DNA of 16,550 nucleotides from a virus, in UHGV virus genome UHGV-0152507; one strand, 5' to 3'. Positions 3,642-10,658 of this stretch are shown here, piece after piece. The position numbers and the translations under genes were made by a program. The notes beneath the pieces were generated by a model. That model ran no database searches. It worked only from the letters and a program-made list of their open reading frames with translations, and had not been told where the DNA came from. Position 1 is the stretch's first letter, and every line of letters starts with the position of its first letter.

Positions 3642-3726
3642 TTTTTTCCTTTGCGTTGGTAAAAGTTATGCCTGATTCACCGCTCAACGTTTCACAGGCA
3701 TAGCGATGTTAGCACAGGAAACACGC

Positions 3727-3758
3727 GCCGGGCGTGGGGTTATATCCCGGCACTTTTT
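3727..3758 (+). terminator. Terminator-like hairpin inside the early transcription unit
   Basis: GCCGGG (3727-3732) pairs with CCCGGC (3746-3751) across a 13-nt loop, followed by AC-TTTTT (3752-3758). On the minus strand no T-run follows the stem. Confidence 0.45.
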
Positions 3759-3777
3759 CAATTTGACGGAGATCAAC

Positions 3778-3999
3778 ATGGACTTAACACAATGCCCTTC
3801 ACTTGCCAGCCTGCTAACCCACGGCCAGCAGATCACCCACCGTCAGCATCAACGCGGCTGGATTGAAACCCCGGACGGGCGTTTCTTCCAGCCTAAAGCA
3901 GCAGATGTTCAATTTATTAAAAACTGCCGTTTACCGTTTATGTCGCGCCCGCGTAATAAGCGCCGCTGGTTTTCCCGCTTAATGGGTATCTTCGCGTAG
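3778..3999 (+). CDS. Hypothetical early protein (73 aa, basic C-terminus)
   Basis: I prefer the ATG at 3778 (GGAGA 5 nt upstream). The track start at 3706 lacks an RBS and would place the 3727-3758 hairpin inside the coding sequence. Confidence 0.6.
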   Translation: MDLTQCPSLASLLTHGQQITHRQHQRGWIETPDGRFFQPKAADVQFIKNCRLPFMSRPRNKRRWFSRLMGIFA

Positions 4000-4014
4000 T
4001 TCGGGGAGGTGGTT

Positions 4015-4404
4015 ATGTTGATGGATAAGACAGGACAACAGCCAGGCCGCCGCCAGTTCTTAGAGCAACGGGCGCGGCTGCAAGCCAGTTTGAACGCCTC
4101 ACGCGTGAATGACACTGCAACCCGTTTTAACCGCCTGGATGATGCCTGCAAAAAGGTGATTTTCATCCTGGCAAACGATGCGTCCAGATACATAGCCGGA
4201 ATGCCGAAGCTGACCGCCAAACAGTTGGGTTGCACTTACGAAAATCTAACCGAAAAGGAGCAAACGTGCCTTTTGATGGGCATTAAGCGCCTTTCCGAAT
4301 TTGCAGCATCAATGCCGTGGGAATTTGAGGACTACGCCGCACCACGCGCCGAAATTCAGGCGATACGCGACAAACCACCCGCGCCAGATAACGCAGTCAA
4401 TTAA
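4015..4404 (+). CDS. Hypothetical early protein (129 aa)
   Basis: I prefer the ATG at 4015 (GGAGG 5 nt upstream) to the GTG at 4009. I recognised no family. Confidence 0.7.
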   Translation: MLMDKTGQQPGRRQFLEQRARLQASLNASRVNDTATRFNRLDDACKKVIFILANDASRYIAGMPKLTAKQLGCTYENLTEKEQTCLLMGIKRLSEFAASMPWEFEDYAAPRAEIQAIRDKPPAPDNAVN

Positions 4405-4474
4405 CAACTAACTACCCACAAAAAAGAAACAGGCGCTAACGCGTCGGGCTTCTTGCACCCTGGAGAAAGTAAAA

Positions 4475-5479
4475 ATGATTCGATCTCTCGTTAAATGGCC
4501 CGGTGGTAAAGGCCGCGTTATGCCTGATTTGCTGCCGATTCTGCCGAAAGCCGATTGCCTGGTGGAACCGTTTGTCGGCGGAGCTTCTGTTTTCCTCAAT
4601 ACTGAATATCGCCGTTATATCCTGGGTGATATCAACCCAGATTTAATTAACCTGTATCGCCAGATAACCCGCTGGCCTGATGCGGTGATCGACGCTGCTC
4701 GCCCGCTGTTTAAAGTGTACGGTGATAAAGACGGCTATAAGTGGATCCGCGACGATTTCAACGCCCGCGCCCATGACCTTCTGTCATCGCGCAATGTGTT
4801 TGAGGACGGACCGGACGCGGGCAAGATTCTTCGTGCAGCACAGTTTCTTTACCTGAACCGTCACGGATATAACGGCGTAGTGCGCTACAACCAACAGGGC
4901 GGATATAACGTTCCCTTTGGTAGACACAAAACCCCGCCTTACTTCCCGGAAGAACAGATCCGTTTATTCTCTGAAAAAGCTAACGACACGAAAGCTATTT
5001 TCGTGTGCTGCGATTTCCAGAGCACGTTAAAAATCATGATTGGTAGTGACGCGGTTATCTACTGCGATCCGCCATACCTGCCAGCAAGCGACACCGCTAA
5101 TTTCACCCAATACCACACCGCCCCGTTTGGCATTAAAGAGCATCGCCAGTTAGCTGCCGCCCTGCTGGATATTAACCGCCTTACTGGTTCGCCGGTGATC
5201 CTGTCCAATAGCGACACCCCATCTACCCGCGAGATTTATCGCGCTTTCAACTTCCAGGAAATCAGCGTTAACCGTTCTGTCAGCGCGAACGCCATTACCA
5301 GAGGGGCCGCCAGTGAAGTGATCGGCGTGCTGCCTGTCTGTGATGGCTGCGGGCGCTATGAAGGTGGTCACTGTGCGAAATGTTGCCCAGGTATCGCCGC
5401 ATGTGAGGAGGGATGGTCGTTTGATTGTCGAGGCAACTGCGATATTTGCGAGCCGTCCGATAACCCGGAAACGTGGTAA
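4475..5479 (+). CDS. dam: Dam-type N6-adenine DNA methyltransferase (D12 class) with a 49-aa Cys-rich C-terminal extension
   Basis: Shows KWPGGK, EPFVGGASVF (SAM-binding) and the catalytic DPPY. The canonical domain ends near ...RGAASEVIGV. The tail (5330-5476) carries 9 Cys. RBS GGAGAAAG lies upstream. Confidence 0.92.
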   Translation: MIRSLVKWPGGKGRVMPDLLPILPKADCLVEPFVGGASVFLNTEYRRYILGDINPDLINLYRQITRWPDAVIDAARPLFKVYGDKDGYKWIRDDFNARAHDLLSSRNVFEDGPDAGKILRAAQFLYLNRHGYNGVVRYNQQGGYNVPFGRHKTPPYFPEEQIRLFSEKANDTKAIFVCCDFQSTLKIMIGSDAVIYCDPPYLPASDTANFTQYHTAPFGIKEHRQLAAALLDINRLTGSPVILSNSDTPSTREIYRAFNFQEISVNRSVSANAITRGAASEVIGVLPVCDGCGRYEGGHCAKCCPGIAACEEGWSFDCRGNCDICEPSDNPETW

Positions 5480-5495
5480 TAGCGAGGGATCTGCA

Positions 5496-6125
5496 ATGAG
5501 AAAAACACACGAATTAAAGATTTGGCCGGAGTTTTTTCAACCTGTTATGGACCGCGTGAAATACGCTGAATTGCGCCTAAATGATCGCGACTATAGCGCG
5601 GGCGACGTTTTGTTTTTGCGGGAGTTTTTACCCGCTAGCGGCAAATATTCGGGCAGCTATAACGTAGTAATAATATCTCATGTCGCTGATGTATCGGCGT
5701 TTATGCCGGGGTACGTCCTGCTTAGTTTCACTTCTTTCGTTACGCGCGGCGCTAACTGGCCTTTCCATAAGCCAACTACAGTGGAGGCTGCTGTAACTGC
5801 GGAAGATACTGGTTTTCTTTCGGCGCTTGTCGCCTGCGAGCCTCCCTGTAGCGTGATTCACCAAATGGCACGCCGACTGCTTGATGAACATCCATCGCTT
5901 CCAGTGTCCGAAAAATCTGATCTGTTGCCATGCCCCTTTTGCGGTGAAGCGGCTTTCTTTGACTCTATTTTTGATTACCAGTCAGAAACGCGTGTTTATG
6001 CCCCGTCTTGTACGGAGTGCTCATGCGAATTGATGGACGGCCCGATCATTAACAAATATGGGCGCGGTTGGTATGCCTCAAAGCAGGATGCCGCCGAAGC
6101 CTGGAATAAAAGGCGCTCGCAATGA
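5496..6125 (+). CDS. Fusion protein: N-terminal DUF3850/ASCH-like (PUA fold) domain plus C-terminal Lar-family restriction-alleviation zinc ribbon
   Basis: I prefer the ATG at 5496 (GAGGG 7 nt upstream) to the track start at 5340. The N-terminus HELKIWPEFFQPVMDRVKYAELRLNDRDYSAGDVLFLREF fits the DUF3850 pattern. The C-terminus LLPCPFCGEAAFF...CTECSCEL...AAEAWNKR fits the Lar pattern. Confidence 0.8.
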   Translation: MRKTHELKIWPEFFQPVMDRVKYAELRLNDRDYSAGDVLFLREFLPASGKYSGSYNVVIISHVADVSAFMPGYVLLSFTSFVTRGANWPFHKPTTVEAAVTAEDTGFLSALVACEPPCSVIHQMARRLLDEHPSLPVSEKSDLLPCPFCGEAAFFDSIFDYQSETRVYAPSCTECSCELMDGPIINKYGRGWYASKQDAAEAWNKRRSQ

Positions 6126-7126
6126 CTGCCTATTACAACGAAATCGATCCATATGCAGCACAGTGGCTGCGCAACCTCATTGATGCCGGGCATATTGCGC
6201 CAGGCATTGTTGATACCCGTTCAATTGAGGATGTAACCCCCAATGACCTTAAAGGCTTTACTCAATGTCACTTCTTTGCCGGGATCGGTGTGTGGTCATA
6301 TGCCCTGCGTCTTGTGGGCTGGCCGGACGACAAACCGATCTGGACTGGATCCTGCCCATGCCAGCCTTTCAGCCCGGCAGGCAAAGCAACTGGGTTTGAT
6401 GACGAGCGGCACTTATGGCCCGCCTTTCATTGGCTCATTGCTCAGTGCCGCCCTGTCGTTGTCGCTGGCGAGCAATCTGGAAGCGCTAACGCGAACGTCT
6501 GGCTCGACCTTGTACAAACTGACATGGAAAGCCTGGGCTATGCCTTCGGGGCGGTCGCGTTTCCGTCTGCGAGCGTCGGTGCGCCACACATCTGGGACAG
6601 AGCTTACTGGGTGGCCGACACCAACGGCGAGCGCATGGAAACACCCTGGAAACCAGGGGAGGCAGGGAGGCTTGAATTTGCAAACGGCCACAGCATTAGC
6701 TGGGTGGCCGACACCAACAACGCAGAGCAACAACCAAATCTCAGGAGTTGGAGCTGCTGCAGATCACCCGAAGCGCGGGACAACTTTGGGCGGGGCTGCT
6801 CAGCTGTCGGGGTGGCCGACACCAGCTTCAAGGGACGGCAAGGGGGGGTATCAGGGCGGGAGGATACGCAACGGGAAGCTGTCGACGGACACGCTGGATG
6901 TGACGGCGCAAATTGCGGGACCGGTCCGGTTAACGGTTTCTGGCGATCTGCTGACTGGCTGTATTGCCGGGATGGAAACTGGAGGCCAGTTAAACCCGGA
7001 CTTAAGCCGCTGGTTGATGGGGTTACCGGACGAGTGGGAAAAATCCGCGCCTACGGAAACGCTATCAACGTTGAAGCTGCAACAGCGTTCATAAAGGCTT
7101 ATATGATGGGGGCGTCAAATGTCTGA
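6122..7126 (+). CDS. DNA (cytosine-5) methyltransferase, phage type (frame A)
   Basis: Motif I FFAGIG, motif IV SCPCQPFS, motif VI-like AGEQS, motif VIII-like GAPHIWDRAYWVA and motif X YGNAINV. ATGA overlap with the upstream gene and an 8-nt overlap with gene A. Confidence 0.85.
   Translation: MTAYYNEIDPYAAQWLRNLIDAGHIAPGIVDTRSIEDVTPNDLKGFTQCHFFAGIGVWSYALRLVGWPDDKPIWTGSCPCQPFSPAGKATGFDDERHLWPAFHWLIAQCRPVVVAGEQSGSANANVWLDLVQTDMESLGYAFGAVAFPSASVGAPHIWDRAYWVADTNGERMETPWKPGEAGRLEFANGHSISWVADTNNAEQQPNLRSWSCCRSPEARDNFGRGCSAVGVADTSFKGRQGGVSGREDTQREAVDGHAGCDGANCGTGPVNGFWRSADWLYCRDGNWRPVKPGLKPLVDGVTGRVGKIRAYGNAINVEAATAFIKAYMMGASNV
6243..7094 (+). CDS. Long +1-frame ORF (frame B, 283 aa) nested in the C5-MTase gene. 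It carries GWPTP modules and a motif IX-like segment. Coding status is unresolved.
   Basis: There is no stop from 6237 to 7094. The ORF contains STLYKLTWK...RASVRHTS, three GWPTP modules, GWPTPASRDGKGG and GGQLNPDLSRWLMGLPDEW. No convincing RBS precedes ATG 6243 or ATG 6399. Confidence 0.3.
   Translation: MTLKALLNVTSLPGSVCGHMPCVLWAGRTTNRSGLDPAHASLSARQAKQLGLMTSGTYGPPFIGSLLSAALSLSLASNLEALTRTSGSTLYKLTWKAWAMPSGRSRFRLRASVRHTSGTELTGWPTPTASAWKHPGNQGRQGGLNLQTATALAGWPTPTTQSNNQISGVGAAADHPKRGTTLGGAAQLSGWPTPASRDGKGGYQGGRIRNGKLSTDTLDVTAQIAGPVRLTVSGDLLTGCIAGMETGGQLNPDLSRWLMGLPDEWEKSAPTETLSTLKLQQRS
6607..6826 (+). repeat. Three in-phase copies of a 19-nt repeat within the MTase gene
   Basis: CTGGGTGGCCGACACCAAC occurs at 6607-6625 and 6700-6718, both perfect. 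The copy at 6808-6826 matches 17/19. Offsets are 93 and 108 nt, both multiples of 3. Confidence 0.95.
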
Positions 7127-9737
7127 CGCCGCCTTTGCATGGCCCTGGAACGCGCCGCGCCCAGCTGTTGGCCTGTACACCTACGAACCGAAAAAAATCG
7201 CCCCGCTTGCCGGGGCGGTGGCGCATCATCCTGCCGTAAAAAAACACATCGATCACATATTCAAACGCGCCGGTTACAACCCTGACGACGTTCGCGACCG
7301 TGACGCGCTGATCCAGACGCTGGACAGGTACGAACCGTGCGGCCTGCCACTGGCCGCCCAACAAAATATCATCCGGCAGGAAAGTGCAGCCGCGAAAGCT
7401 GCGGCGGCCGCCTGGGCCAATACGCCGGAAGGTGTCGAAGCGCGTTTGTTGTCTGAGCCGTTCTTCATCCGCGAAGTCTGGCGCAAAAAAATTGAATGGT
7501 TACGGGCCAACCGTGAAACCAGACACACCAATGATTTTCTTATGGGGACCGTGAAAAAATCATTGCTGCGTCTTGATGTTGTGCGCACAAGGCAAGGTGT
7601 TTCGCCTGATATCACCGGCGAACTGGCCGCGTACTGGTTCGGGCGCTGGCAACGGCTGGCTGATTTCACAAAGCGGGAAGCCCTAAGCGCCGCTAATGAG
7701 ATCGCCAGCCGCATGGCTGAAATGCTGGGGACGGAATGCGAAGCCTTGGGACGAAATGTTTCAGACATGAACGTCGAAGAACTGGACTGGCTTTATTGCC
7801 ACCTGGGCCGTGAAATGCTGGCGCTTCGCATTGTGCCGCCTGCATGGTATGCGCCGTGGGAACGCGAGCGCATATGCACGGCCATTTTGCGTATGGCTTC
7901 GCCTGACTGGTGGGGGCGCAAAATCTGGCGCTTGCGTTGTGACTGGCGCGAAAACCAGCTGCGTGCTGTTGGCGCGGTAAATAAAAAAGCGCATCCGTAT
8001 ATCAGTGCATCAAGCCTGATGGAATGGCAGGAACAGCGACGTAAAAACCGTAATTTCTTCAAAAGTCATGAACTGGTAGACGAAGACGGCAACGTTTCGT
8101 CGCTTGAGGACATGATTAACAAATCCACGTCTAACCCTGCAATTCGTCGTCATGAGCTTATGGCCCGTATGGCTGGCGTGGAGCTTGTCGCCCAGAGTCG
8201 TGGCGATGTTGGCATCTTCCTGACCATCACTTGCCCGTCGAAATATCACGGCAATATTGCGTCCGGCCACCATAACGCAAAATGGAACTACGACACGGTT
8301 GCACAGGCGCAACGCTATTTATGCCGCGTATGGAACCGGGCAACCGCCAAACTGAAACGCGAAGATTTGCGCCCTTACGGCTTCCGCGTCGCCGAGCCGC
8401 ATCACGACGGAACGCCACACTGGCACGCCCTGCTATTTATGCCGCAGGCAGAAGTTAAAGCCACGGTAGCGATTTTGCGTGATTACTTTGTCAAAGAGGA
8501 CCGCGCCGAACTGGGGCGTAATACCGGTGCTCGCTTCAAGTCCAAAAAAATGGACCCACGGAAAGGGTCAGCAACGGCGTATATCGCGAAATACATTTCG
8601 AAGAATATCGACGGCCATGCGCTGGCCGGTGAACTGGACGACGAAAGCGGCAAGCCGCTGAATGAAACAGCCAAATATGCAATGGCCTGGGCATCACTTC
8701 ACCGCATCCGTCAGTTTCAGCCCATCGGACAGCCGCCCATATCGGTTTACCGCGAGCTGCGCAAACTGAGCAATCAGATCACGACGCGCCAGAAAATTGA
8801 CAATACCTTCAAGCGCGGTGCGCCGTTGCTTGTGGATCCTGCTATGGATGCGGTTTGCGCCGCTGCGGATGTCGGGTGCTTTGCTACCTACATCATCCGC
8901 CAGGGTGGTGTTTTGATCCCGCGAGAAAACTATGTCGTCCGTCTGGCCTATCAGCCAGCTGATGAAATGAATGCTTATTGTGAGATCCCCGAAAAGGTAT
9001 TCGGGGTCTGGTCGCCACGTCTGGGGGATGCCTCCCGCATTTGCACCCGTCTGGTTAAGTGGAAAATCCGCGCCAAATCCAAAGCCACCACCGGGGCCAA
9101 AAACGGCCCCGGTTTGGGGGTTGACCTTTTGCCGTCGCCAACCGGCGACGCTTGGAGTTCTGTCAATAACTCTACGGAAGACGAAAAAATCACCGATTTT
9201 TCGCCTGATGTGGAAGGGGTGACAGGAGGAGCAGAAGGGGAAATCGGCGATGTTGAAAACATGGACCAACCGACACGGCGAAAATTGATGCGGCGACTAC
9301 GTGAAACACCATTCAAAAGGCAGCAAAACGGATCACCTTATGAGCCAGGCAGCGAATTAGATGTCGCCTGGCGTTCTGCCGTGGAAAAAACCGAGGCCAG
9401 ATCGGCGGCAGAAAAGGCCAAACGGGCGGCGCTTGCCCCTGCTGTTGCCAGCCTGCTGGCAGATGCGGCGTTGTATTCGGTTGAGATTTCAGAGATTCAG
9501 GCCGTTTCGCTGTTAATGGGGAGTTGTCTGGAGATTGGCGGCAAAGTTTATCGGGCCAGTGCTGACGGCCAGTTGATAACGCGTCAATTACCCGACGAGT
9601 CACGGACGGTGAATAAATTATGGGAACGTCTGCGGGATAACCACGGCATAGATGCCACGCGCCTGCGGTTCGACCCTGCGGGCGAATACGCAAAGATGTT
9701 AACGAAAGCAATTAATTGCGCTGACAAAAAGGGGTGA
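7119..9737 (+). CDS. A: Replication initiation endonuclease gpA (HUH rolling-circle nickase, Phage_GPA family)
   Basis: 872 aa with HUH motif PHWHALLF and Tyr motif AYIAKYISKN. Its position, last in the early operon, matches P2. Confidence 0.93.
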   Translation: MSDAAFAWPWNAPRPAVGLYTYEPKKIAPLAGAVAHHPAVKKHIDHIFKRAGYNPDDVRDRDALIQTLDRYEPCGLPLAAQQNIIRQESAAAKAAAAAWANTPEGVEARLLSEPFFIREVWRKKIEWLRANRETRHTNDFLMGTVKKSLLRLDVVRTRQGVSPDITGELAAYWFGRWQRLADFTKREALSAANEIASRMAEMLGTECEALGRNVSDMNVEELDWLYCHLGREMLALRIVPPAWYAPWERERICTAILRMASPDWWGRKIWRLRCDWRENQLRAVGAVNKKAHPYISASSLMEWQEQRRKNRNFFKSHELVDEDGNVSSLEDMINKSTSNPAIRRHELMARMAGVELVAQSRGDVGIFLTITCPSKYHGNIASGHHNAKWNYDTVAQAQRYLCRVWNRATAKLKREDLRPYGFRVAEPHHDGTPHWHALLFMPQAEVKATVAILRDYFVKEDRAELGRNTGARFKSKKMDPRKGSATAYIAKYISKNIDGHALAGELDDESGKPLNETAKYAMAWASLHRIRQFQPIGQPPISVYRELRKLSNQITTRQKIDNTFKRGAPLLVDPAMDAVCAAADVGCFATYIIRQGGVLIPRENYVVRLAYQPADEMNAYCEIPEKVFGVWSPRLGDASRICTRLVKWKIRAKSKATTGAKNGPGLGVDLLPSPTGDAWSSVNNSTEDEKITDFSPDVEGVTGGAEGEIGDVENMDQPTRRKLMRRLRETPFKRQQNGSPYEPGSELDVAWRSAVEKTEARSAAEKAKRAALAPAVASLLADAALYSVEISEIQAVSLLMGSCLEIGGKVYRASADGQLITRQLPDESRTVNKLWERLRDNHGIDATRLRFDPAGEYAKMLTKAINCADKKG

Positions 9738-9739
9738 GC

Positions 9740-9955
9740 ATGAAAATTATTATTGGGCATAAGAAGCAAAATAATCAGTTAGATGTAGTTGTAAGTGCCT
9801 GGTGTTGGGAAGTGGAGCAACTCAATAAGCTGACAAAAGAAGTGATCCGGGTGTTTTTTGTGGAAGGTGAAGCAACGTGCGTGCCGTCGTCATTTCTTCT
9901 GCGTCGTAAATACAAGGTAAGCGGGCCGGAGAGTTCTAAATCTTCCACCAGATAA
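9740..9955 (+). CDS. Hypothetical 71-aa protein downstream of A
   Basis: The ATG at 9740 lies 2 nt after the A stop, with AAAAGGGG upstream. It is AT-rich relative to A. I recognised no family. Confidence 0.5.
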   Translation: MKIIIGHKKQNNQLDVVVSAWCWEVEQLNKLTKEVIRVFFVEGEATCVPSSFLLRRKYKVSGPESSKSSTR

Positions 9956-10302: not shown

Positions 10303-10334
10303 TAAAAATGCCCGCTTTATGCGGGCTTCGTTTA
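10303..10334. terminator. Bidirectional rho-independent terminator (serves the P-Q-ogr operon and the 71-aa ORF)
   Basis: GCCCGC (10310-10315), loop TTTAT, GCGGGC (10321-10326). It is flanked by AAAAAT on the left and TTCGTTT on the right. Confidence 0.8.
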
Positions 10335-10658
10335 TGCCGTCTGACCGTTGAGCAGGTCCAGCGCGAATTGACGTTCTTCGGGCTTGAGCCGGTCAATCAG
10401 AAATTTAACCAGCTTGTTGCCGGTCAGCCCGCTGGGGCTGAGGGTATGTGAAAACTCAACGCTATAAACAAATGTATGACCACATTCCACTTCCGTGCAG
10501 CCACAGTATAAAGACGCCAGTTTTTTATCTTTCCAGTCAGATTTACGAATGATGGCCGGTGAGCCGCATTCAGGACATTTAATTTTAAAAACTCGCATGT
10601 TCACCATCCCGCACGCCATTGCTAACAATGGGGATGATTTTAACTTAACTGCGCTCAT
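10332..10658 (-). CDS. ogr: Ogr/Delta-family zinc-finger late-gene activator
   Basis: KCPECGSPAII...YCGCTEVECGHTF gives the CxxC...CxxxxC pattern aligned with P2 Ogr (CPLCQH...QCQNVNCSATF, from memory). The ATG at 10658 overlaps the Q stop (ATGA). The alternative start at 10598 (MRVFKIKCPEC, 88 aa) would fit the family N-terminus better. Confidence 0.8.
   Translation of the reverse strand: MSAVKLKSSPLLAMACGMVNMRVFKIKCPECGSPAIIRKSDWKDKKLASLYCGCTEVECGHTFVYSVEFSHTLSPSGLTGNKLVKFLIDRLKPEERQFALDLLNGQTA

Follow-up and report, generated by a model that had tools for sequence, protein, structure and literature searches.

Two cytosine C5 methyltransferases divided between two polypeptides, M.EcoHK31I and M.AquI, were the only precedents that we found for the arrangement described here, and the searchable literature contained no description of nested genes in phage C5 methyltransferases. 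M.EcoHK31I is a heterodimeric enzyme with the target YGGCCR (Lee, Kam and Shaw 1995, via PMC2836561 and PMC3404938). In its reported architecture, the beta coding sequence falls completely within the alpha gene and uses another reading frame. Motifs I-VIII and X belong to alpha and motif IX to beta, and the enzyme needs both chains but not the first ~42 residues of beta (PMC2836561; PMC3404938). M.AquI is split in its variable region into two polypeptides that need to associate, the large subunit having motifs I-VIII and the small subunit motifs IX and X (PMC3404938). Here we describe a gene pair of related design in UHGV virus genome UHGV-0152507, a stretch of 16,550 nucleotides (the window, to which all coordinates refer unless another locus is named). 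The pair consists of a gene for a C5-cytosine methyltransferase, called alpha, at 6122-7126, and a candidate gene for a second chain, called beta, at 6243-7094. It stands at the end of a block of genes at 4475-7126 that also encodes a Dam-family methyltransferase and an ASCH-Lar fusion protein and lies just 5' of the replication gene A.

The likeness to M.EcoHK31I is one of described architecture. In both, beta is contained in alpha (in the window, in the +1 frame), and the dispensable start of M.EcoHK31I beta has a parallel in the first ~40 amino acids of the beta family described here, which are unconstrained. The window enzyme differs in being an orphan without a cognate endonuclease, carried in a phage early operon, and in the size of its beta chain, which at 283 amino acids takes up nearly the whole alpha gene, compared with the 176 reported for M.EcoHK31I. 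In contrast to M.AquI, the window has motif X (YGNAI) on alpha, 3' of the beta stop. The reading that we favor, with a probability of roughly 65%, is that the block is exchangeable cargo of four genes in the early operon of a P2/186-like prophage, encoding Dam, the ASCH-Lar fusion, and a C5 methyltransferase made of two polypeptides, alpha and beta. A first-pass annotation had counted three genes; its domain calls for Dam, ASCH-Lar, and the C5 methyltransferase were correct, but it overlooked the fourth gene at 6243-7094, which, judging from its sequence, most likely supplies the target recognition domain (TRD) and motif IX.

The alpha chain and its linker

Alpha (6122-7126, + strand) has 334 amino acids and matches phrog_363 over its full length (E = 1.4e-87). 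Matches to well-described methyltransferases are partial: PF00145 covers only amino acids 73-175, an hmmsearch alignment with M.HhaI covers residues 72-178 only (motifs IV-VIII; E = 7e-17), and Foldseek matched M.HaeIII and M.HhaI across only ~170-190 columns. Motifs I (FFAGIG), IV (PCQPFS), VI (GEQS), VIII (PHIWDR; PHxRxR in the family), and X (YGNAI) are all present on this one polypeptide and are invariant or almost so in the 73 unique members of the family. Between motifs VIII and X, no TRD or motif IX was matched in alpha, PF00145 and M.HhaI reaching only amino acids ~71-175. The same region (amino acids ~170-283) is of low complexity, variable in length, and unconserved in the family alignment (A2). 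The AlphaFold2 model gives a predicted local distance difference test score (pLDDT) of 80-90 for amino acids 1-169 and of ~25 for amino acids 170-283, so that this linker is predicted to be disordered at the place expected for the TRD and motif IX. A conserved segment, FW..ADW..C.DGKWRP, precedes motif X.

A gene nested in the +1 frame

The candidate beta gene (6243-7094, + strand) encodes 283 amino acids in the +1 frame without extending beyond either end of the alpha gene, and its product matches two PHROG families labeled "DNA methyltransferase," phrog_31772 (E = 6.6e-42) and phrog_1008 (E = 5.4e-33). Its conservation was followed in a set of 85 loci with 50-67% alpha amino acid identity that takes in phages SI7 and SEN5, two Klebsiella prophages, and 80 IMG/VR loci. 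Both the alpha and the +1 frames are open at every one of these loci. Open stretches of 248-385 codons are found in the +1 frame, compared with 39-162 codons in the +2 frame, and insertions and deletions of up to ~60 codons keep alpha and beta intact together. A sequencing frameshift or a pseudogene was considered as the source of the two frames and was ruled out, since both frames are intact in 85/85 diverged loci.

Synonymous-codon shuffling (5,000 trials) served as the null model. With the alpha codons of the window shuffled, a +1 open reading frame (ORF) of at least 285 codons arose in 0.14% of the trials (P = 0.0014). For the Klebsiella and Bas77 alleles the count was 0/5000, and for the allele of a low-GC Paenibacillus phage it was 0.04% (P = 4e-4), while the window Dam and gpA genes, shuffled as controls, gave no significant result. 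In the reverse test, in which the synonymous codons of beta were shuffled, alpha stayed open in 0/5000 trials. Because the shuffles agree in both directions, we conclude that the alpha and beta frames are both maintained.

Codon-position variation, computed over 73 unique sequences, changes along the gene. Alpha codons 1-80 (6122-6360) behave as an ordinary single-frame gene, with a variation of 0.5 at the third position and 0.1-0.2 at the first and second. Over codons 81-160 (6362-6600), which include motifs IV-VIII, the alpha third position drops to ~0.3 and the first position rises, a sign of dual constraint. Over codons 161-260 (6600-6900), the most variable position is the alpha first position, which is the beta third position, and beta dominates. 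All three positions are low over codons 261-300 (6902-7020), indicating strong dual constraint, and the alpha signature returns in codons 301-334, 3' of the beta stop, where alpha is again the single frame.

These results bear on the explanation that the nested ORF is a noncoding accident of G+C content and of the amino acid composition of alpha. The shuffle null does produce long +1 ORFs by itself (mean, 135 codons), and for a GC-rich Rhodobacter phage the shuffle was not significant (P = 0.075). However, the ORF is open at all 85 loci, low-GC phages of Paenibacillus and Lactobacillus have it too, the beta third position is the most variable one at 6600-6900, the start is conserved, and the cassettes described below are conserved while alpha is not. 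We regard the accident explanation as effectively refuted.

Homologs of beta are abundant. A word-index search returned more than 4,700, and at E values of up to 1e-3 there were 10,610 cluster representatives at 50% identity. In 234 phage records, tblastn placed beta beneath a gene annotated as a cytosine methylase. One such gene is N15 gene 58, where the near-full-length match to beta is known from the protein match and not from inspection of the frames. The nested pair occurs in the E. coli phage Bas77, the Rhodobacter phage RcPescado, the Paenibacillus phage Arcticfreeze, and the Xanthomonas phage PhiXhv-18, as well as in the Lactobacillus phage Lc-Nu, the Microbacterium phage MoxS-R1, the Stenotrophomonas phage SBP2phi2, and the Sulfitobacter phage phiGT1. 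The phages concerned infect Proteobacteria, Firmicutes, and Actinobacteria. The records of Arcticfreeze and PhiXhv-18 already label both nested coding sequences as methyltransferases. In the Klebsiella P2-like prophages (loci L003 and L004, at ~3880-5022), only beta is annotated, as a hypothetical protein without a Pfam match, and the GTG-starting alpha was dropped. Mth of Wphi, a canonical single-chain methyltransferase, has no comparable nested ORF.

Probable translation start of beta

Translation of beta probably begins at a separate ATG, served by a Shine-Dalgarno sequence of its own. A beta-frame ATG is found at −125 or −113 nucleotides (nt) from the PCQ codon in 73/73 unique family members, and a Shine-Dalgarno-like sequence precedes it in 49 of the 52 members of one start group and in all 21 of the other. 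In the −125 form, AGGAG lies 8 nt 5' of the ATG and is made from the alpha codons GAA AGG AGY (Glu-Arg-Ser); AGG is a rare Arg codon in enterobacteria. In the −113 form, to which the window belongs, GAGGA is found 11 nt 5' of the ATG and the −125 ATG is directly followed by TAA. The start region of the window (6227-6245, + strand) accordingly reads GAGGA at 6227-6231, an ATG-TAA start-stop at 6231-6236, and the beta ATG at 6243. The ATG-TAA ends 6 nt before this ATG, and its −125 ATG is the actual beta start in most relatives. A conserved ATG with two co-varying forms of the Shine-Dalgarno sequence supports independent initiation rather than frameshifting.

The frameshifting alternative would have a single-chain methyltransferase made by two programmed ribosomal shifts, a +1 shift once motif VIII had been read and a −1 shift on the way from motif IX to motif X, with the full-length ORFs as by-products. 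It would make sense of the order on the DNA, in which motifs I-VIII in frame A are followed by the TRD and motif IX in frame A+1 and by motif X in frame A again, the canonical order of motifs. On the other hand, the conserved beta ATG (73/73) with its Shine-Dalgarno-like sequence is far 5' of motif VIII, and the N-terminal part of beta that overlaps alpha motifs IV-VIII is itself constrained. The alpha linker, too, stays open although it is unconserved (0/5000 shuffles), and no search aimed at slippery sites was made. In addition, the two polypeptides of M.EcoHK31I were reportedly expressed from separate genes and both needed (PMC2836561). Frameshifting was downgraded because of the conserved upstream start of beta, and we consider it improbable.

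Probable division of the motifs between alpha and beta

Beta has four parts: the unconstrained start of ~40 amino acids, a conserved N-terminal part (SGTYGPP...GSTLYKLTWK..MPSGR.RFRLRAS.R.TS), a series of cassettes, and a conserved end (P.RLT.SG..LTG..A.ME.GGQL.P..SRWLMG.P.EW in the family; ...GGQLNPDLSRWLMGLPDEW... in the window). Across the family there are one to four cassettes, each opening with GWPTP(T/A)A.D (WPTPxAxD), and the window has three. Their boundaries are formed by three direct repeats on the + strand at 6601-6623, 6694-6716, and 6802-6824, spaced 93 and 108 nt apart, with the core GGGTGGCCGACACCA, which is read as GWPTP by beta and as WVADT by alpha. The cassettes are conserved as beta protein, whereas alpha is not conserved in the same stretch. 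Another beta allele (P0001; 87% identical) lacks exactly the 108-nt, 36-amino-acid cassette between repeats 2 and 3, a difference that fits cassette gain or loss via recombination between the WPTP-coding repeats. With repeat-bounded cassettes of variable number, DNA specificity could change by the gain or loss of a cassette.

Two single-chain methyltransferases of Mycobacterium phages, Yorick gp69 and Fushigi gp80, allow the parts of the nested pair to be assigned. Their catalytic core is homologous to alpha (hhalign probability, 98%), and they share with the nested pair an xPTPxAxD TRD, an EW(L/M)MGxPxGW motif IX, and a GN(A/G)V motif X in equal order; they differ in having every motif in one frame and on one polypeptide (TRD, LLPTPSAADGGGGH and STPQARDYKG; motif IX, FPEWMMGWPAGW or YEWLMGLPRGW; motif X, GNGV). 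With the two proteins as tblastn queries and ten nested-family genes as targets, motifs I-VIII always matched in the alpha frame (E = 1e-11 to 1e-40), the TRD (PTPSAADGGGGH) matched only in the beta frame, and motif X matched in the alpha frame. Motif IX (EWMMGWPAGW / EWLMGLPRGW) matched in the beta frame only, in 7/10 and 8/10 of the targets, with E values that are individually weak (0.004-0.6). An hhalign comparison of beta with Yorick gp69 aligned the motif IX stretch alone, with low probability. The motif IX matches are persuasive only because they recur at one position and in one frame. Read in this way, the canonical order of motifs I-VIII, TRD, IX, and X is kept on the DNA and divided between two frames. 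Yorick gp69 itself (locus L088, 1048-2274) contains a 178-codon +1 ORF with a product that resembles the N-terminal part of beta (…ETWPKTGYMSDGRAYELPTSEPHTSESECSSSLPTPRGS…), and it may stand between the nested and single-chain types in evolution.

The multispecific C5 methyltransferases of Bacillus phages SPR, phi3T, and rho11s are single polypeptides with tandem exchangeable recognition modules between motifs VIII and IX. The window enzyme is like them a phage orphan C5 methyltransferase, with putative tandem recognition modules, and differs in being encoded as two candidate polypeptides.

It is also conceivable that beta is a real protein but was overprinted with a job other than methylation, for instance as a regulator or an anti-defense factor, and that alpha is self-sufficient by means of its conserved C-terminal segment. 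Beta has no significant family match in Pfam, NCBIfam, or PDB, the single-chain methyltransferases examined contain nothing in frame that corresponds to its N-terminal part (LTWK...RFRLRAS), and alpha retains the strongly conserved FW..ADW..C.DGKWRP before motif X. Against this, the TRD and motif IX of the single-chain enzymes line up in order with the C-terminal half of beta and are matched only in the beta frame; alpha lacks matches to either and, by prediction, is disordered there; nesting is tied to this methyltransferase clade across three phyla; and the precedent of M.EcoHK31I (PMC2836561) points to a methylase subunit. We therefore think a separate job for beta rather unlikely, if somewhat less so than frameshifting.

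In the two-polypeptide reading, alpha would form the S-adenosylmethionine (AdoMet)-binding and catalytic core, with motifs I-VIII plus X and a disordered linker in place of the TRD and motif IX. Beta would contribute the TRD-like WPTPxAxD cassettes and the equivalent of motif IX, together with an extra N-terminal domain, and the two chains would assemble into an active C5 methyltransferase by analogy with M.EcoHK31I. The alpha linker would read through whatever beta encodes and so tolerate changes in the cassettes. In the early phase that follows infection or induction, all four genes of the block would be active, and the replicating phage DNA would be modified against restriction in the next host. 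The ORFs and their domains, the conserved frames and start, the distribution of the motifs over two frames, and the mosaic make-up of the block are direct results; we infer the heterodimer, its methylation activity and specificity, and the anti-restriction role.

Several points weigh against this reading. Beta has no significant sequence match in Pfam (E up to 10), NCBIfam (E up to 0.01), or PDB, and its AlphaFold2 model, built from an alignment of 22 sequences, is uninformative (pLDDT, 31). The likeness at motif IX is weak when taken singly (hhalign E = 0.011 and probability 4%; BLASTP E = 0.02). The kinship with M.EcoHK31I is put forward as an analogy of architecture, and the TRD of that enzyme is reported to be on alpha, whereas the TRD-like cassettes of the window are apparently on beta. 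That beta is translated and binds alpha is a prediction, and the anti-restriction roles are taken from family membership.

A further point concerns the window copy itself. Residue 158 of alpha is Trp (codon TGG at 6593-6595, + strand), at a position that is Arg in the other 72 of the 73 unique relatives and in the nearest relative, which is 99% identical. W158 aligns with R163 of M.HhaI in motif VIII, and it replaces the first Arg of PHxRxR. As this Arg is otherwise invariant, the R158W change may have impaired or inactivated this copy, the activity of which is in doubt. The implied change from CGG to TGG, as read from the sequence, is synonymous (Ser) in the beta frame, which shows that the overlap is able to mask damage to one partner, the change being silent in beta.

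The block upstream of gene A

The ORF map and translations place Dam, the DUF3850/ASCH-Lar fusion, and the C5-methyltransferase ORF on the + strand just 5' of gpA (4475-7126). The tight packing noted in the first-pass annotation can be read directly from the sequence: a 16-nt gap separates Dam from ASCH-Lar (5480-5495), ASCH-Lar and alpha overlap by ATGA (6122-6125), and the alpha stop overlaps gpA by 8 nt (7119-7126). The gpA gene, for the replication initiation endonuclease, extends over 7119-9737 on the + strand (PF05840; E = 1.4e-105). A Fil-like gene at 3706-3999 and an Ogr/Delta gene at 10332-10658 (PF04606) place the window in a P2/186-like prophage.

A consensus scan found an early promoter-like site at ~2351-2387 and a terminator-like hairpin at ~10310. 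Between them, the only + strand promoter-like sites are at 7344-7372 and 9721-9750, within or just beyond gpA; after the early site, the scan gave no + strand promoter-like site 5' of or within the block, and the + strand terminator-like hairpins before ~10310 were few and weak. These results fit co-transcription of the block with the replication genes, in line with the co-expression that had been proposed. At 10310-10326, a perfect GC-rich hairpin (GCCCGCTTTATGCGGGC) that scores as a terminator on both strands separates the early operon from the convergent Ogr/Delta gene.

The first gene of the block (4475-5479, + strand) encodes a Dam-family (D12 class) N6-adenine DNA methyltransferase of 334 amino acids with its core at amino acids 1-283. 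It scores well above the cut-offs for PF02086 (E = 2.8e-57; 194.8 bits, cut-off 22) and for TIGR00571, the dam family (258 bits, cut-off 114.85), and its translation contains the catalytic DPPY motif as YCDPPYL and the AdoMet-binding FxGxG-like motif as EPFVGGASV. Because its score for the equivalog NF008152 is below the cut-off, it is not considered an ortholog of host-type Dam. Beyond the core is a Cys-rich C-terminal tail of 50 amino acids with 11 cysteines (CDGCGRYEGGHCAKCCPGIAACEEGWSFDCRGNCDICE; amino acids ~285-334, nt ~5326-5476). The tail is common to the Dam proteins of SEN5 and of the Citrobacter BR102 prophage, is replaced by another tail in SI7, and is absent from Dam of the E. coli 2011C-4251 prophage. 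It has no match in Pfam and may bind metal.

The second gene (5496-6125, + strand) encodes 209 amino acids in which a DUF3850 (ASCH-like) domain is fused to a Lar-type zinc ribbon. Its ORF is listed from a GTG at 5340, and the plausible start is the in-frame ATG at 5496, which has a Shine-Dalgarno-like GAGGGA 6 nt upstream; the stop is at 6125. DUF3850 (PF12961; amino acids 4-78, E = 7e-17) is above its curated cut-off, and so is the Lar domain (PF14354; amino acids 142-206, E = 1.3e-10, 41.8 bits, cut-off 28.6), a region that TIGR03655 matches as well (41.9 bits, cut-off 39.6). The fusion to DUF3850 makes this architecture atypical for the Lar family, and DUF3850 is labeled "RNA-binding protein" in PHROGs; a function in restriction alleviation is suggested by the family name. 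The fusion is rare: it forms two 90%-identity clusters among 5.8 billion proteins and is present on 2 IMG/VR contigs and in a single one of 185,579 species genomes; among sequenced phage records, none covers 80% or more of it. The nearest genomes that bear it are Citrobacter, and unfused relatives occur in Salmonella as proteins with DUF3850 only (134 amino acids) and Lar only (133 amino acids).

Exchange of modules before gene A

The earlier view of the block as accessory cargo is borne out by the interval between genes B and A, the content of which varies among relatives. The E. coli 2011C-4251 prophage aligns by BLAST to 3647-5325 (96%) and to 7130-9688 (91%), with 45 nt between the two stretches in the prophage itself. 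It joins the Dam core directly to A, and the variable cargo relative to this nearest backbone relative is therefore 5326-7129 (+ strand), which comprises the Dam tail, ASCH-Lar, and the alpha/beta methyltransferase. SopEPhi has only Dam before A, SEN5 has Dam followed by the alpha/beta methyltransferase, and SI7 has Dam, a 75-amino-acid ORF in place of ASCH-Lar, and the C5 methyltransferase. Wphi, annotated by similarity to P2, has orf80-83 at this position. The prophage of Citrobacter meridianamericanus BR102 is 96% identical through Dam and ASCH-Lar and switches exactly at the alpha start codon. In a comparison of the whole block with 5,426 complete E. coli genomes, the Dam core alone was matched, in 25 genomes, which makes E. 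coli an improbable source of the window.

In the BR102 prophage (locus L101, 4627-5646), the alpha/beta methyltransferase before gpA is replaced by a gene with a PAPS_reduct domain (PF01507; E = 7e-30), and the slot therefore appears to swap different genes of the DNA-modification type. Wphi carries its mth gene (locus L091, 6044-6982) at another locus, 3' of A. Because this canonical single-chain C5 methyltransferase is unrelated to alpha/beta and is located elsewhere, cytosine methylases have been acquired at least twice in the P2-like group.

The modules of SopEPhi, SI7, and SEN4/SEN5, with Dam or Dam plus Dcm before A, are like that of the window in position, in Dam family, and in alpha/beta methyltransferase family. 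The window differs from them in its rare ASCH-Lar fusion and its three-cassette beta allele. Dam before A and Dam plus Dcm before A are thus recurrent modules of Peduoviridae that have already been sequenced and annotated, and the block is no new island.

A layered counter-defense role for Dam, Lar, and the C5 methyltransferase was proposed in the first-pass annotation, and the family names and memberships suggest such a role. It is possible instead that the block serves mainly the timing of replication and packaging, the avoidance of mismatch repair, or the reprogramming of host gene expression, with ASCH-Lar acting on RNA or modified bases. The block is indeed located in the replication operon directly before gpA, a phage Dam adds little protection in the enteric hosts of the relatives, which are generally Dam-positive, the PHROG label of DUF3850 points toward RNA, and the slot can carry a PAPS-reductase-domain gene instead. 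The fast swapping of modification genes at one slot, however, is typical of arms-race cargo, and the Lar family is named for restriction alleviation. We consider such a housekeeping or regulatory role unlikely as the main one, although slightly less so than a nonmethylation role for beta, and it is not mutually exclusive with counter-defense.

Implications for phage C5 methyltransferases

As a whole, the block is ordinary exchangeable cargo of the anti-restriction type, in which the ASCH-Lar fusion is rare and the C5 methyltransferase copy may be crippled. The wider interest lies in the alpha/beta pair. The nested beta gene places the window enzyme with the little-cited EcoHK31I type and suggests that this design is the norm across a very large phage methyltransferase family. 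Gene callers choose one frame: NCBI names alpha "DNA cytosine methyltransferase," and Prodigal-type callers often keep a hypothetical beta and drop alpha. The family is thus inconsistently annotated in public data. Thousands of database entries would then cover only half of an enzyme, and alpha cloned alone may yield inactive "orphan methylases."

To our knowledge, few same-strand nested gene pairs of phages are as long or as widely conserved as alpha and beta. At ~850 nt with both frames under selection, the pair is a natural model for the overprinting of a structured protein on a disordered linker. We tentatively extend this to the family as a whole, with ~10,000 nested-ORF clusters at 50% identity in phages of three phyla, including P2-like prophages and probably N15 gp58: its members could be obligate alpha/beta enzymes in which the recognition subunit is overprinted on the disordered linker and the repeat-bounded WPTP cassettes are exchangeable, possibly making the enzymes multispecific. 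If this is true, specificity evolves by the gain and loss of cassettes while the catalytic core is left untouched, and the alpha/beta cassettes may explain the fast change of specificity among phage C5 methyltransferases.

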